From Octopus vulgaris (Eukaryota): 64,000 nucleotides of DNA. Below, piece after piece: positions 28 to 60,123 of this stretch. Location of the stretch: contig OX597831.1 of assembly GCA_951406725.2 (NCBI GenBank), positions 17,918,001 through 17,982,000 of the forward strand, in the 5' to 3' direction. The position numbers were made by a program, and so were the translations under genes. Positions within the stretch are counted from its first letter, which is position 1. Each line of letters begins with the position of its first letter. Below the pieces are notes generated by a model. That model did not search any database. It saw only the letters and a list, made by a program, of their open reading frames with translations, and had not been told where the DNA came from.

Positions 28-45
28 ATTCTCTTGTCTACTAGA
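28..45 (-). CDS. Gene A micro-exon 5 (18 nt): SSRQEN if phase 0
   Basis: cttccgttttcttttcag|TCTAGTAGACAAGAGAAT|gtaggt. Same aligned position as the 21-nt micro-exon 34736-34756. Confidence 0.7.
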
Positions 46-304
46 CTGAAAAGAAAACGGAAGTTCATCAATATGAGTGCCACAAAAGTGTATTTAATTT
101 ATCTTTGCATATATATATGTATTAATTAGGATGAAATTAATTTCATATTACAATGATCATTAACAAATATTATTATTATATTTATATGTGATCAGTGATA
201 ATTGACGAGAATAACTAAATTTGCTGTCAGCTGTGTACATAAATAGTTGCAGTTGATTAAATATGATGCTATTAAAATACCACAGCCTGTTAATCCTAAC
301 TTAC

Positions 305-367
305 CGATACGACAAAAAGTGATGCGAAACATAACGCTAGCGAGTTATTTCGAAAATGAAGTTTTAT
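305..367 (-). CDS. Gene A candidate exon 4 (63 nt): IKLHFRNNSLALCFASLFVVS
   Basis: Donor TATCG|gtaag conserved in both paralogs; frame open in both with an in-frame 15-nt indel. The acceptor (tttgaaag) is weak, and a 32-nt version (305-336) is also possible. Confidence 0.35.
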
Positions 368-675
368 CTTTCAAACGTGAGTTGATATGGAAACTAAATT
401 TCAACGAGAGGCAGTCGCTGAGTTATATTTAATAAAACTAGTAAAAGATATTTTTGGATTGAAGTGCTTTCCTCACAATGAAATAAGAGTTACAAATAGT
501 TATCTTACAGCATAGTCTTTGTACATAAGGTCTACACCACATAAACATGAGGCACTCTTTAAGAACATTGAAACGATTTGTGATCCATGTAGCATAATAT
601 ATCTGTAACATCTCCGTCATAATACACTGGCAAATAATTTAATGAAAAATGGTAGAGTTCTTATGACTATAAGTT

Positions 676-966
676 GAGGCGCAATGGCCTAGTGGTTAGG
701 GAAGCTGACTCATGGTCGAAGGATGGCGGTTTCGATTTCCAGACTGGGCGTTGTGTGTGTTCATTGAGCGACAGCCCCTAAAATCTCCACGAGGCTCCGG
801 CAGGGGGTGGTGGCGACCCCTGTTATACTCTTTCGCCACAAATTTCTCTCACTCTCTCTTCCTGTTTCTTGCGCAACGCGCCCTGTCCAGCTGGGGGGAA
901 TATAGACACCACGGAAACCGGGAAACCGGGCCCAGGAGCCTGACTAGGCTTGAAAAGGGCGAAAAA
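676..966 (+). mobile_element. tRNA-derived SINE
   Basis: A-box-like tggcctagtggttagg and B-box-like ggtttcgatttcc; absent from the paralogous site; related fragment at ~16325-16495. Confidence 0.8.
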
Positions 967-1170
967 ACGACTATATATATTTGATGGTTTAACACGATTA
1001 GGGTAAATCTGCTTTGTTTGGCCCTAGTGTCAAAAGATGCGTTTAGTGTATCAAAATATATGTCTGTTGACGATATTTTATTCATAACCACGCCTGTCGT
1101 TGGTAATCGTTCTCTGTATCAAAGTTAACCTTTTATTTCTACCACAACAATGGCATCGATGCAAAACTAA

Positions 1171-1736
1171 TATGTTGTGTTGTCGGGAAAGTTCGTGCCG
1201 ATTAATAATAGCCAAGCTTTCGACTTATTTTAGAATGCGGTTGAGTCCGTAAAATAGGATTTGACTGCCCTCGATTTAGAGCACAGCTTAAGCTATCTTT
1301 TCGTGGAAGAAGGTTTATGTTCCTATAAACTGTGTTAATTCTGTAACCCTTTAAAATGGAAGATAAGAAAGTTCATTTTCGGCACTTGATGCTTTGGAAA
1401 TCAGGCAAAAATTGCTGCAGCTCGCCTGGGATGTGTTACCCCACCCTCCATATTCACCAGATATTGCTCCTTCGGATGTCCACTTATTCAGGTCTCTGCA
1501 GAATAGTCTTAATGGTAAAAATTTCAATTCCTTGGATGGCGTAAACAGATACCTTGATGAATTATTTGCCATGAAACCACCTCAATTCTGGGAAGAGGGC
1601 ATTTTCAAGTTAAACGAAAGATGGAGACGCATTGTGCAACAAAATGGTTCATATATGGTTGATATGTAATGACAAGTATTCATTTACACTTTACTTTCCT
1701 TTAAAAATCGGCACAAATTTTCCGGAGAACCCAATA
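1171..1736 (+). mobile_element. Internally deleted mariner
   Basis: TIRs ttgtcgggaaagttcgtgccgatt / aatcggcacaaattttccggagaacccaata; ORF 1394-1669 has the HPPYSPDIAPSD transposase motif. Confidence 0.92.
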
Positions 1737-1956
1737 TTATGTATTAGTGCTATATTAAGAATAAGCAGCAATATCATTTTAAAGTTTGCGATTGCTGATT
1801 TCCGGAATTGGTCATTATGTTTTGTTTGGCGCGTCCGGAGGTATTTCGTAGACGCCTAATAAATATCAGAGAACAACATATCTTTCCGAAAGAAAGCTTT
1901 TATTTGAGGAATCAGATTGAAAGTAAGACAATATCAAAGAGTGAAACGTAACTTAC

Positions 1957-1978
1957 GTTGTGGCAGGGGTGAGCCACT
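1957..1978 (-). CDS. Gene A micro-exon 3 (22 nt): VAHPCHN
   Basis: ttatttag|AGTGGCTCACCCCTGCCACAAC|gtaagt. Phase 2 to 0 fits exon 2; paralogous micro-exon 35712-35730 keeps AHxC. Confidence 0.75.
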
Positions 1979-56779: not shown

Positions 56780-56869
56780 ATGCACTACGATCGTTTCATG
56801 CGAATCCATTTAATTGAACAATGCAAATATTACATCAATTTTAAAATGTAAATCAATCTTCAGCTGCAT
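56780..56869 (-). ncRNA. Degenerate hammerhead motif
   Basis: atgcag-CTGAAGA...GAAA-cgatcg-TA-gtgcat; stem II poorly paired. Confidence 0.45.
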
Positions 56870-56949
56870 AAAAATATAGAATTTTGTGAAATTCTTATCT
56901 GTATAATTTTTTATCCAAAATTATAAAGAGGATAAGGAAATAGACACAG

Positions 56950-57665
56950 AAAGTGTTTTGTCAACAACATCACAGTTGTAATGCAGCAGAAAGACTAGTT
57001 TAGTCTGGGTGCCGGTATTTTTCATTTCCCCAAACACTATCTTCGGCGCTTGGCATTTTAAAAGAGAACTCACTTCTCGTCATCAGTCACTATTCGGTCG
57101 CAAAATGTTCATTCGCTCACTACGCGCAAAGTTTATAAGTAATAAATTGACACAATTTTCTGAAATTTCGGATGGTACGCAGGTGTCGGAGAATGGTTGA
57201 ATGACGAAATCCAAGCTTCTCTGCTAGTTTCTCAACAGCTGCGATGGGAATTTATTTCACCAGTTCTTGCAAGACGTCCTCGTCGAGCTCTGGATATATT
57301 CCAGGATGAAGATCATTTCTAGGGTGTAGTTTCCTGCACGGAATTTCTGGAATCAGCGTTGACTCTGCCTTTTCCGATCTCCATGTACTAAATTAACATT
57401 CTTTGCACTTTATTTTGTGCTGTTGCCTTTATTGAACTGAAAAAGAAAAATTTGCCGACCATACTACTTTCTCACTTCCATTATAGCTTTGCAAACATAA
57501 CTGGTAGAATTGAACTGCACTCTTCAAAAGTTGCTCTAAGAATAAGGACAATGTAAAATTACTAGATGGTTATATAGCAAGTTGATACAAGTAGTTTATC
57601 CCGTACCCATCTGACTTTTACTTTCTGAAAAGGAAAACCGTATTATTTATGGGATAACCTTATAC
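56950..57665 (-). mobile_element. Degraded mariner 5' part
   Basis: TIR-like ccgtattatttatgggataacctta; decayed HTH-region coding. Confidence 0.5.
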
Positions 57666-58211
57666 AATACAAACATCGATGTATAAAATTCGGATGTTTC
57701 GTTCTTCTTGCGTTTATGGCAAACAACTGAAGAACATCAAAGCAATATCCAGAGGAACACACATAAATCATTGTTGCAAATTATTTTTTTATTTAGTTAT
57801 GCATAGCCAGAAGTGCTCTAAGAACAATAGCTGACTGAAAGTTTATCCGTAAAAAGAGTAGAAATAAGTCAGATATGAATTATATGCCAGGTGATATATA
57901 TATATATATATATATATATATATATATATATATATATATATATATATATATATATGTATATATATATATATATATAAAGTTAATCCAAACATGAAAACAA
58001 AAAAAGAAAACACAACAAAGCAAGGACGTGTAAGAAATATAGTATTTCAGGAAAGAAAGACAGAAAGAAAGAAAGAAGGAGGGTTTAACATTTCGAAGGG
58101 ACCACTTCGTCAGAAACATAGGAAAAGGGAAGATCCAAAGAAGGGAAGACGGAGAGAAAAAATTGCCAACGCTACACACGCGGTCCTATATTGAATGCAT
58201 ATATATATATA

Positions 58212-58845
58212 TACAAGGGAAAGTAAAATATATTCTGCATTTACGCATTTAACATTTCTTTACTATCGTCACACTGCTTTCTGCACATGGGCAGATATAA
58301 CTGATGCTATTGTAGTTACAAGATCGACATTCGTGCCTGATTCCACCATTTTTTCTGCCTGTCGTTACAGTGTAAGCATGTCCACACAACTAGCAATGCG
58401 TACGAAAGAAGAACAAAGCCCAGTAATCTGAAAAATGGATGGCAATGGTGAATCAGTTTAGCAATTACCATGCGTGCTGCTCCTTCTTAATGGGTCACGT
58501 TTGTCCGGTCACTTGTTAGCTTCTCCATCCGCTCATACACACTTCTACACGATTGTGCAATGTACACTTACTGTGTTAAAAGCCCCCGAAGAAATTCATT
58601 ACCTGAAACACCTTCGATCCAGAGAAATCGGATCGTTGTTCTTCGATCCAATTTGGAGCATATTGCTAGTGGATCGGCCATGCTTCCACTCTAGTGCCAG
58701 ACAGAAACAAATGGTGCTATCAGGCGCAGACATCGATAGCAGTACCACAGTAGAACCAACTATAAGCACGCATGTGCGGAAGGCAGTGTGGTAGTAATAG
58801 ATTCGTTATGTCGAAAGGGAAGATCAGTTCTTACTTCCCCTCGTA
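58212..58845. mobile_element. Mariner-derived relic
   Basis: Imperfect TIRs tacaagggaaagtaa / ttacttcccctcgta. Confidence 0.55.
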
Positions 58846-59789
58846 TATATATATATATATATATATATATATATATATATATATATATATATATATATAT
58901 ATATATATATATATATATATATATATATATATATATATATATATATATATATATATATATATATATATATATATATATAAGTTCAGCAAAATTTAAATTC
59001 AGATGGATATGGTATTTAAGTTAAAGGCACCAGAGGTTTGTATGGCATTATCCATACAAATCAAATTGGGTGATTATAATCAAAGTAAGCAACAAGGATA
59101 TCCAAGGCGGTGTACTGCACTACCTTGGATATCCTCAGAAGCTATTTTAAGGAGCGTGTATACAAGTCAGTATGCGTTCCTTTTTTGATAAACCCGCAGG
59201 TATTAATATACCACGTCGGGTCCAATTAATCGTATACAGAGAGTAAATAATTTTCAGGCTCTACTTCCATAACTCCGTATGTGTTCATCTATCTTAACTT
59301 GTGTATGCATTTCAATTTTGATATGCATTTATATATATATACGTATATGCATATGTATATTTATATATATACATATATGTATGTATATATGTATATATAT
59401 ATATATATATATATATACGTATATGCATATGTATATTTTCGCAAAAAACAGCAATTTGAGTGAGAGCTTTGTTAAATACATCGACCCACATGCTCAACTT
59501 GTTCTTATTTTATCGAACTCGAAAGAATGAAAGGCAAAGTAAACATTGATGGAAAGTGAACTTAGAATTCAAAGGAGGTCGATATCACGCTAACTTTTAT
59601 GTTCGCTGTCTGTTTTAGTTGATATTATAATCATTTTTGCAGTGTTATGTAAGTATAATGCAATTAGTAATGGATTTATATTATTGTAGTAATCTACATG
59701 TTCCCAGTAATATCAGACCGTGAATTAATCATAGAAGAATAATGAAACGGCATTTCAGTGGTTGTACGACTAGCTCGTGTCAGTTCTGT

Positions 59790-59930
59790 CTCGTCAAATC
59801 ACTGTCAAGTCTTTGGTTGACACAAGGCTATATCAGAAAGTATTTGGTCACGGTACCACGCGGTGGGATTGAGCCTGGAACCATGTAGTTGGGAAGCAAG
59901 CTCCTTACAACATAGCCACGCCTGCGCCTG
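59790..59930 (-). mobile_element. Old SINE head (further relics ~3590-3760, ~59480-59600, ~60590-60920)
   Basis: Diverged reverse complement of the 32476 family. Confidence 0.7.
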
Positions 59931-60110
59931 TATAGATAAGCATATTATTAATAAATCTATATTATTGAAGTATAATAGGAATTCAATTTTGGTTACATCG
60001 TCTGCTCAGTATGTAGATAATGCAATCAATCGGAAATAGCATCAAAGGTAATTCAGTAATTATTGATTCAATAGGTAACTTGAAATTACCTACCTCATCT
60101 TTGTTACAAA

Positions 60111-60123
60111 TACTTACAATGAA
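60111..60123 (-). promoter_or_regulatory. Gene B probable 5'UTR exon donor (possibly a 6-nt exon 60118-60123)
   Basis: ctttcatttcag|TTCATT|gtaagta. Donor conserved in gene A; the AG is not. Confidence 0.45.

Follow-up and report, generated by a model that had tools for sequence, protein, structure and literature searches.

Two paralogous genes, A and B, lie on the minus strand of a 64,000-nucleotide stretch of Octopus vulgaris DNA (contig OX597831.1, positions 17,918,001 to 17,982,000; hereafter the window). The question raised by this locus is whether they are an isolated pair of micro-exon genes for small secreted proteins, as a preliminary description had it, or members of something larger. 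Their introns show ~70% homology around exons 1–4. Each gene opens with a signal-peptide exon, the coding part of which spans 20105–20066 in gene A and 56262–56223 in gene B (phase 1), and continues into a 106-nt exon carrying Cys 1–3 at 10444–10339 in gene A and 55134–55029 in gene B (phase 1 to 2); these four exons are seen in the sequence as originally proposed. It is now very probable that A and B are regular five-exon members of a larger octopus gene array.

Profile searches across 1.864 Mb of C18, on which the window lies, identified 73 copies of exon 2 at E<1e-3, 62 of which combine an open frame with splice ends. Further copies in the flanking scaffold, for which a search had been suggested, thus proved numerous, the original pair being two of more than 70. 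Sparse samples were positive from 15.70 to 19.26 Mb, and the resulting extent of at least 3.5 Mb is a lower bound, as the left edge was not reached. Profiles of the five exons matched in the order e1-e2-e3-e4-e5 along the region, whereas the same profiles gave 0 matches at E<=0.5 in a reversed 1.46 Mb control; the ordered matches exceed chance. There are 49 exon-5 matches in the array, and many left-arm units lack an exon 4 or exon 5 match in the profile search. When the whole genome was searched with the O. bimaculoides protein P0004, all 11 matches at E<0.02 fell in the C18 array, a result that would still be compatible with distant subfamilies on other chromosomes. The motif CAYVTGYTRC, which presumably resembles a DMRT-type site, precedes 28 of 35 units as against 0.18% of random windows, and lies at 56352–56361 in gene B and 20193–20202 in gene A.

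The 26 clean gene models assembled from the array encode proteins of 97–114 aa with a median identity of 26%, and exactly six cysteines are present in 21 of them. Exon 1 is hydrophobic in every model (mean 1.5–2.8), which by hydropathy points to a signal peptide. The exon phases in these models were imposed by the script and are not independent evidence. After exon 2, the preliminary description had placed micro-exons of 22 nt in gene A and 19 nt in gene B, but these correspond to the 3′ ends of longer exons of 88 nt (2044–1957) and 85 nt (35796–35712; phase 2 to 0). The TAG acceptors of the claimed micro-exons sit within these open exons, whose own acceptors, both CAG, are at 2044 and 35796. 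Exon 3 of the family (85–100 nt) was recovered in 16 of 18 profile matches and is present in full in O. bimaculoides database models. Because the supposed micro-exons are the ends of exon 3, the peptides spliced earlier and their pattern, C-x7-C-x13-C-x5-C, are incorrect past exon 2; the full exon encodes Cys 4–6 and brings two extra cysteines, so that the spacing in both genes reads C-x7-C-x13-C-x8-C-x8-C-x9-C.

Downstream of exon 3, the short exons reported at 45–28 in gene A (18 nt), and at 34756–34736 (21 nt) and 33060–33034 (27 nt) in gene B, do have AG/GT ends. The first two are exon 4, a phase 0 exon of 18–51 nt across the family and the sole short exon of the five, which in gene B encodes a polar linker with a predicted GPI attachment site. 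The 27-nt exon, also in phase 0, is a second exon-4-like copy that arose by local duplication of exon 4 and the intron downstream of it. A second 19-nt exon claimed in gene B, at 33319–33301, has good splice signals there but is doubtful, because the aligned block in six other copies shows no such exon; spliced with 33060–33034, it would cause the protein to stop ahead of its tail. RNA contigs on 24800–36100 (four putative RNA runs, repeat-swamped) contained no exon joint among the matches listed, left exon 5 without cover and gave the 19-nt candidate no RNA support. The genes had also been ended before their terminal exon. This exon 5 encodes a hydrophobic, GPI-signal-like tail; its coding part through the stop lies at 25390–25328 in gene B, and in gene A the exon falls outside the window, 740–814 nt beyond its start (C18:17917260–17917186).

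The C-terminal tails have a best 12-residue hydropathy of 1.6–3.1 and are followed by no cytoplasmic domain. A triad of small residues is found 23–28 aa from the C-terminal end in 23 of 26 models, compared with 44% of control windows, and begins in exon 4 in 22 of 26. As the hydrophobic tail of exon 5 thus stands behind a small-residue site, the proteins are predicted to be GPI-anchored rather than freely secreted, the prediction being based on hydropathy and on a permissive heuristic in place of a trained predictor. It is likely that most five-exon members are anchored in this way, and the free secretion assumed initially is probably wrong for most of them. In several cases the tail is short or terminates in basic residues, and could be a retention or membrane-binding helix instead of a GPI signal.

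Structural modelling of the cysteine domain gave three helices and no strands (pLDDT 80). The claim of a lineage-specific signal-peptide, Cys-scaffold family outside any recognised Pfam family held up: Pfam returned nothing significant for 14 exon-2 peptides or three proteins, and PDB sequence searches, made in the same search for a characterised family, were equally negative. Foldseek found nothing at E<=0.001 for either model, and VIA-align nothing at Z>=5, an absence that is no proof of a new fold. For the whole protein, the best named language-model cluster was neuritin, at 0.84 with 147 of 256 features, which is below the 0.9 bar of the tool; the domain alone fell in no named cluster. Neuritin (NRN1, PF15056) gave no Pfam match for the three proteins at E<=5, with filters that drop weak matches, or in the genome, and was absent from the fold searches. 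Domains of GFRα3, GFRAL and GAS1 made up four of the top 50 fold rows (rmsd 2.5–3.7 over 50–58 aligned residues), at Z 3.0–3.5, the background level for helical models, and hhalign against one octopus GDNF-type domain (PF02351) gave a probability of 0.4. Neuritin and GFRα/GAS1 are accordingly weak leads as relatives. Two other candidates were rejected: the GLG1 cysteine-rich repeat (PF00839), for which HMM scores against nine octopus repeats were no better than those of cysteine-preserving shuffles, and an internal repeat of exon 2 in exon 3, hinted at by MAFFT, which did not rise above shuffles in an HMM test. A DUF19 search of the genome returned no match above the cut-off.

Divergence among members is concentrated in the domain. 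In a young clade, the exons for the signal, linker and tail stay similar, whereas divergence of the two domain exons outpaces that of their own introns, with a domain pN of 0.28–0.45 against a pS of 0.15–0.30, and a tail pN of 0–0.05. Two independent pairs show more differences in the domain exons than in the adjoining 100-nt flanks (P about 0.009 and 0.0002, computed from rounded flank counts). Flank gene conversion could mimic this contrast, which is small or mixed in older pairs. Formal tests of positive selection in three clades gave no support for an omega significantly above 1; the estimates for the young, A/B and right-arm clades were 1.59 (2dL about 2.4), about 1.0–1.3 and about 0.6, respectively.

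Taken together, the balance tilts towards A and B being array members that encode GPI-anchored mini-proteins with three predicted helices and three predicted disulfides, diversified as a cell-surface recognition repertoire; its functional part, a repertoire for recognition or binding, is itself modestly favoured. In the proposed mechanism, exon 1 would direct entry into the ER, exons 2 and 3 would form the helical fold with its three disulfides, and the small-residue site in exon 4 would be cleaved and joined to GPI under the direction of exon 5. Each paralog may then present a different surface on one scaffold and bind a different partner, such as a receptor or channel ectodomain, a microbial or chemical ligand, or a surface protein of another cell. 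The common upstream motif may produce co-expression in one tissue or cell class, and an alternative last exon could yield soluble forms.

By analogy, the best reading is that the array follows the logic of a Ly6/uPAR cluster on an unrelated scaffold. Ly6/uPAR genes are small and in tandem, encode a signal peptide, a disulfide domain and a GPI tail, and diverge in the domain while keeping the ends; loss of the anchor can yield soluble members. The octopus array resembles them in its tandem arrangement, signal peptide and GPI signal, the last by heuristic only. It differs in having six cysteines and a predicted all-helical fold, where the Ly6/uPAR three-finger domain is beta and has 8–10 cysteines. 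Its genes also have five coding exons, a separate short one bearing the predicted attachment site, and there is no sequence match, in Pfam or otherwise, to the Ly6/uPAR domain.

A narrower form of the recognition repertoire, fixing its tissue and ancestry, would make the products neuronal or sensory accessory proteins, neuritin- or lynx-like: GPI-anchored channel modulators or wiring labels, possibly remote homologues of neuritin or GFRα/GAS1. Neuritin is likewise a small protein with a signal peptide and a GPI anchor (here predicted), and is the top named cluster. It is described as conserved, whereas this family has more than 70 divergent copies, a shorter domain (about 60 aa) and, as noted above, a score under the bar and no NRN1 match. 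GFRα, GFRAL and GAS1 also contain extracellular helical disulfide domains and are mostly GPI-anchored, but their domains are longer and richer in cysteines than that of the array, and their repeated fold rows reach Z of only 2.6–3.5, the level of background, with no profile match. Even with the megabase arrays of cephalopod neural gene families described in PMC9068888, this version is rather unlikely. Fully secreted effectors, acting in saliva or venom, skin mucus, antimicrobial defence or as pheromones, with a soluble domain as the product and a tail that is either a propeptide or a transient anchor, are an unlikely alternative for which sequence patterns can also be cited. In toxin and defence-peptide families, as here, signal and tail are conserved around a disulfide domain that is hypervariable, and tail-less products are indicated by isoform P0002, by one unit with a stop in exon 4 and by the left-arm units without an exon 4 or 5 match. 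Yet no other coding segment is as conserved as the tail in the young clade, which together with the 49 exon-5 matches makes a purely soluble product unexpected, and the octopus venom superfamily reported in one relevant preprint consists of neuropeptide-mimic precursors.

Fertilisation in other animals is mediated by small, GPI-anchored, fast-evolving proteins, and the upstream element, which may be DMRT-like, would suit sperm or egg surface factors in gamete or reproductive-tract recognition; the array, with over 70 paralogs that are only about 26% identical, goes far beyond the need of known gamete-recognition factors, and this reading is quite improbable. The original model, in which skipping of short exons in micro-exon genes would diversify a secreted protein, draws on exon 4, which all 26 models show as short and symmetric, on its two copies and the possible 19-nt exon in gene B, and on an in-frame TAG within exon 3 of both genes, as in 6 of 37 units. 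The internal TAGs have weaker pyrimidine tracts than the CAG acceptors (8 and 10 of 17 versus 12 and 11 of 17), and splicing there would remove two conserved cysteines. Schistosoma MEGs share a signal peptide, rapid evolution and at least one short symmetric exon, but according to PMC4350168 very small symmetric exons hold most of their coding region. Here there is one such exon of five, in genes that also encode an anchoring tail and a conserved cysteine domain, and short symmetric exons supply 18 of 327 coding nt in gene A, 21 of 315 in gene B and 48 of 342 in gene B with the duplicated exon 4, or 5–14%. The domain is borne on two asymmetric exons of 85–106 nt, so neither can be skipped singly in frame. 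Database isoforms vary at first or last exons rather than at internal micro-exons, and diversity comes from whole-gene duplication; the exon-skipping model is thus highly improbable.

Full-gene tandem duplication with interspersed fragments also generates diversity in the multi-megabase arrays of coleoids, which include protocadherins, C2H2 zinc fingers, S-crystallins and chemotactile receptors, according to the accessible text of PMC9068888; the C18 family is not among the arrays named there, although further, unnamed squid arrays are mentioned. A bolder and distinctly tentative extension starts from the density of 39 exon-2 copies per Mb, which over at least 3.5 Mb extrapolates to ~140 genes. 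These might share a single promoter element and encode hypervariable GPI-anchored mini-proteins that work as a combinatorial code. Such a code might mark cell identity, tune sensory receptors or discriminate non-self, and some subfamilies might have lost the anchor and turned into soluble ligands or effectors, the whole being a helical counterpart of the Ly6 superfamily. If so, the array would be similar in size to the protocadherin expansion. Octopus expansions of protocadherins, zinc fingers and chemotactile receptors are invoked to explain the nervous system and senses, and here another of comparable scale seems to have been overlooked.

The array is apparently undescribed, a literature search having found no account of the family, and was apparently missed because its exons are short, its introns long and its members only ~26% identical. 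That gene finders would largely miss it was correctly anticipated: the only database protein found to contain array exons, P0001, merges three adjacent genes. Word-based searches of the protein database, which are insensitive here, returned only three O. bimaculoides clusters and the fused model. The O. bimaculoides models P0003, P0004 and P0007, together with P0001, independently confirm the exon 2-3-4-5 joins in relatives, and P0004 and P0002 are two isoforms, the first with the tail and the second lacking it. P0004 matches one array unit at 47 of 62 domain residues, and as this similarity is between orthologs of two Octopus species, it is more in keeping with fixed specialisation than with a continuing arms race. 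Existing octopus tissue and single-cell RNA data can be remapped with the coordinates and exon profiles, and the array offers a natural library of a predicted 60-residue, three-disulfide helical scaffold with a variable surface. In the Atlas, language-model features placed the family near two unnamed, mostly molluscan clusters (0.93 and 0.92), which suggests further relatives. Within the window, parts of other units are also visible on the minus strand: exon 4 (30 nt) of the next upstream paralog at 60123–60094, its exons 2–3 lying beyond the window; a degenerate exon 5 of that paralog at 57846–57793, with GG at the usual acceptor position; and an orphan, degenerate exon-1-like sequence at 23229–23125, with an ATG at 23188 and an unclear donor.

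The two minus-strand paralogues A and B, noticed as a micro-exon pair, led to a larger finding: a multi-megabase array, apparently undescribed, of genes for predicted surface-anchored six-cysteine proteins. The preliminary description of the pair was partly confirmed: it placed correctly both signal exons, both 106-nt exons and three short exons. A DNA profile of its claimed first micro-exon, however, recovered a longer conserved exon 3 in paralogues. Exon 3 follows a CAG acceptor behind a pyrimidine tract. It is 88 nt long in A, starting at window position 2044, and 85 nt long in B, starting at 35796; 16 of 18 profile matches yielded it at a length of 85–100 nt. 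The acceptors originally chosen are TAGs within coding exon 3, in frame yet weaker, with 8 and 10 pyrimidines per 17 nt compared with 12 and 11 at the CAG acceptors. The internal TAG site is present in only 6 of 37 units (paralogue copies of the array), and splicing there would remove two conserved cysteines. The whole exon is also present in the Octopus bimaculoides database models P0003, P0004 and P0007. The cysteine spacing is therefore not the four-cysteine pattern first reported; it reads C-x7-C-x13-C-x8-C-x8-C-x9-C. A further proposed exon of B, at 33319–33301, appears doubtful from alignment, since its enclosing block aligns to six other copies and the exon occurs in none of them. Exon 4 is present a second time in B, at 33060–33034. 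The feature bounding the pair at 60123 is indeed an exon, but it is exon 4 of the next paralogue rather than part of B, with a degenerate exon 5 of that paralogue downstream at 57846–57793.

Aligning the sequence 3′ of exon 4 identified a terminal exon 5, at 25390–25328 in B and just beyond the window edge in A. Its product comprises 15–25 residues, hydrophobic for the most part, followed by a stop and without a cytoplasmic domain. GPI signals are arranged in this way, with a small-residue site ahead of a hydrophobic C-terminal tail. Using a permissive heuristic for such sites, a small-residue triad was found 23–28 residues before the C-terminus in 23 of 26 models, compared with 44% of control domain windows, and it starts within exon 4 in 22 of the 26. 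This layout suggests a role for exon 4, the sole true short exon, as the likely carrier of the predicted GPI attachment site. A single O. bimaculoides gene yields both forms, the isoform P0004 carrying the tail and the isoform P0002 lacking it. In the L015 unit (window +96.5 kb), exon 4 is 31 nt long and contains a stop in frame ahead of the tail exon; this unit is either a soluble variant or a pseudogene. Runs of units with matches to exons 1 and 2, and in some cases exon 3, without an exon 4 or 5 match lie at about 17.02–17.31 and 17.42–17.53 Mb of contig OX597831.1 (G000:C18; stretches L176–L195, L123–L131 and L063–L074); these have either diverged tails or represent anchor-less subfamilies.

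Iterated exon profiles, run over neighbouring stretches of the contig, revealed a large array, with units ordered from exon 1 to exon 5 and present on both strands. At E < 1e-3, 1.864 Mb contained 76, 73, 47, 49 and 49 matches to exons 1 to 5, respectively, and zero exon-profile matches were obtained in a reversed 1.46-Mb control. An open frame and splice ends accompany 62 of the 73 exon 2 matches. Among 14 spaced 10-kb samples taken farther to the left and right (positive at E < 0.01), all seven leftward samples were positive, reaching 15.70 Mb, as were three of seven rightward, reaching 19.26 Mb; none of the spaced samples from 19.4 Mb onward was positive. The array is at least 3.5 Mb long, and extrapolation gives a copy number of about 140. 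The central 1.46 Mb holds 55 units, of which 37 have exons 2 and 3 and 26 gave clean five-exon models, 11 having been dropped from modelling (five for a wrong pick, stop or frameshift; six missing an exon). Exon phases (1, 2, 0, 0) were imposed by script, so independent support comes from the database models and the aligned splice sites. The modelled proteins span 97–114 aa, with a median identity of 26%. GC donor sites occur in two units (the L013:5600 region and the one at window +255 kb), at exon 2 of one and exon 1 of the other. The region from −310 to −100 kb of the window (L082, L023–L042) is marked by recent inverted and segmental duplications, and here the exon 2 sequences of two units are identical but their exon 3 sequences differ; orphan copies of exon 5 lie at about −279 and −201 kb.

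The array also exists in O. bimaculoides: P0004 clusters with one unit, sharing 47 of 62 domain residues with it, and P0007 clusters with a different unit. All 11 matches at E < 0.02 in a genome search with P0004 fell inside the array. Searched with a profile, a set of 1.84 billion representatives yielded three proteins. One, P0001, labelled in its source as an O. vulgaris hypothetical protein and 302 aa long, has exons identical to those of three units near the window and merges these neighbouring paralogues (L043, L049 and L050–L051) into one model; the identity of these exons places the genome within Octopus. With so few proteins returned, one of them a three-gene fusion, A and B are likely unannotated.

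In a young clade with four clean members, the domain exons show pN of 0.28–0.45 and pS of 0.15–0.30, and the tail pN of 0–0.05. In two independent pairs, the domain exons are more divergent than their 100-nt flanks (52/191 versus about 70/400 differences, and 46/185 versus about 48/400); this exon–intron contrast is slight or mixed in older pairs, and part of it could stem from gene conversion. Whole-domain omega is 1.59 in the young clade, an excess over 1 that is not significant. For the A/B clade it is about 1.0–1.3, and for the right-arm clade about 0.6, with omega = 1 rejected in this last case. Upstream, 28 of 35 units carry the motif CAYVTGYTRC at 74–116 nt 5′ of the start ATG (at 56361–56352 and 20202–20193 in the window, plus 26 other units), compared with 0.18% of random windows. 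It consists of an E-box-like hexamer fused to TTAC and resembles a DMRT-type site. Common ancestry contributes to its sharing, and the motif persists where flanks have diverged.

AlphaFold2, given the O. bimaculoides domain with exon-wise paralogue rows, predicted three helices (pLDDT 80, pTM 0.62); the full-protein model added a disordered linker between the signal helix and the tail helix. Foldseek returned no significant structural match and VIA-align none at Z ≥ 5; its rows at Z 3.0–3.5 included GFRa3, GFRAL (two rows) and GAS1 amid unrelated helical rows. The comparators were a GLG1-type repeat gene (G000:C1:20.64–20.70 Mb; L143–L152) and a GDNF/GAS1-type domain (G000:C15:68.95 Mb; L210), and tests for NRN1, GDNF, GLG1 and DUF19 gave no positive support.

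The best-supported reading is that the array, which is demonstrated along with its gene architecture, encodes a repertoire of mini-proteins, predicted to be helical and GPI-anchored, with different partners. Diversity would arise through whole-gene duplication; the exposed domain would change fast while the trafficking ends, signal and tail, stay constant; and the mini-proteins might be displayed on one cell class, each binding different partners. Ly6/uPAR clusters serve as the analogy from which we infer this recognition role.

Under the rival micro-exon proposal, A and B would correspond in architecture to the Schistosoma micro-exon genes, as defined in PMC4350168; that interpretation is not supported. 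Neuritin-like neural modulators are another candidate, and the layout of neuritin is given in PMC12715718. Neuritin scored 0.84 in Atlas, below two unnamed, largely molluscan clusters (0.93 and 0.92), and the domain alone had no named match there. The products might instead act as soluble effectors, a form for which the tail-less isoform P0002 speaks; the strong conservation of the tail in the young clade points towards the anchored repertoire, and octopus venom superfamily 1 (bioRxiv 10.64898/2026.02.02.703354), made up of neuropeptide-mimic precursors, speaks against soluble effectors. Gamete factors are a further rival. No description of this six-cysteine array family was found in the literature searched, a set outside which the 2015 octopus genome paper fell, and no paper in it carried the locus ids. 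Cephalopod gene arrays are described in PMC9068888, which mentions further unnamed squid arrays, listed in a supplementary table, that may bear on the novelty of the octopus array.

The window, from a 2.8-Gb genome, is AT-rich with abundant microsatellites. Around exons 1–4, the DNA of A and that of B are about 70% identical. Intron 2 of A contains a 566-nt inverted repeat of 97.5% identity (arms at 3858–4421 and 4749–5314), likely a foldback or MITE-type element. Broken transposon frames, labelled by eye, occupy introns on the minus strand (39291–51223 and 6792–8586) and the plus strand (15357–15827, 21014–21601, 53402–53926 and 27407–28543); they resemble pieces of LINE reverse transcriptase, mariner-type transposase and Helitron helicase, and include a repeated frame of 379 aa. 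SINE-like repeats at 28570–29323 and 32340–33093 attracted extremely deep contig coverage in each of four putative RNA runs.
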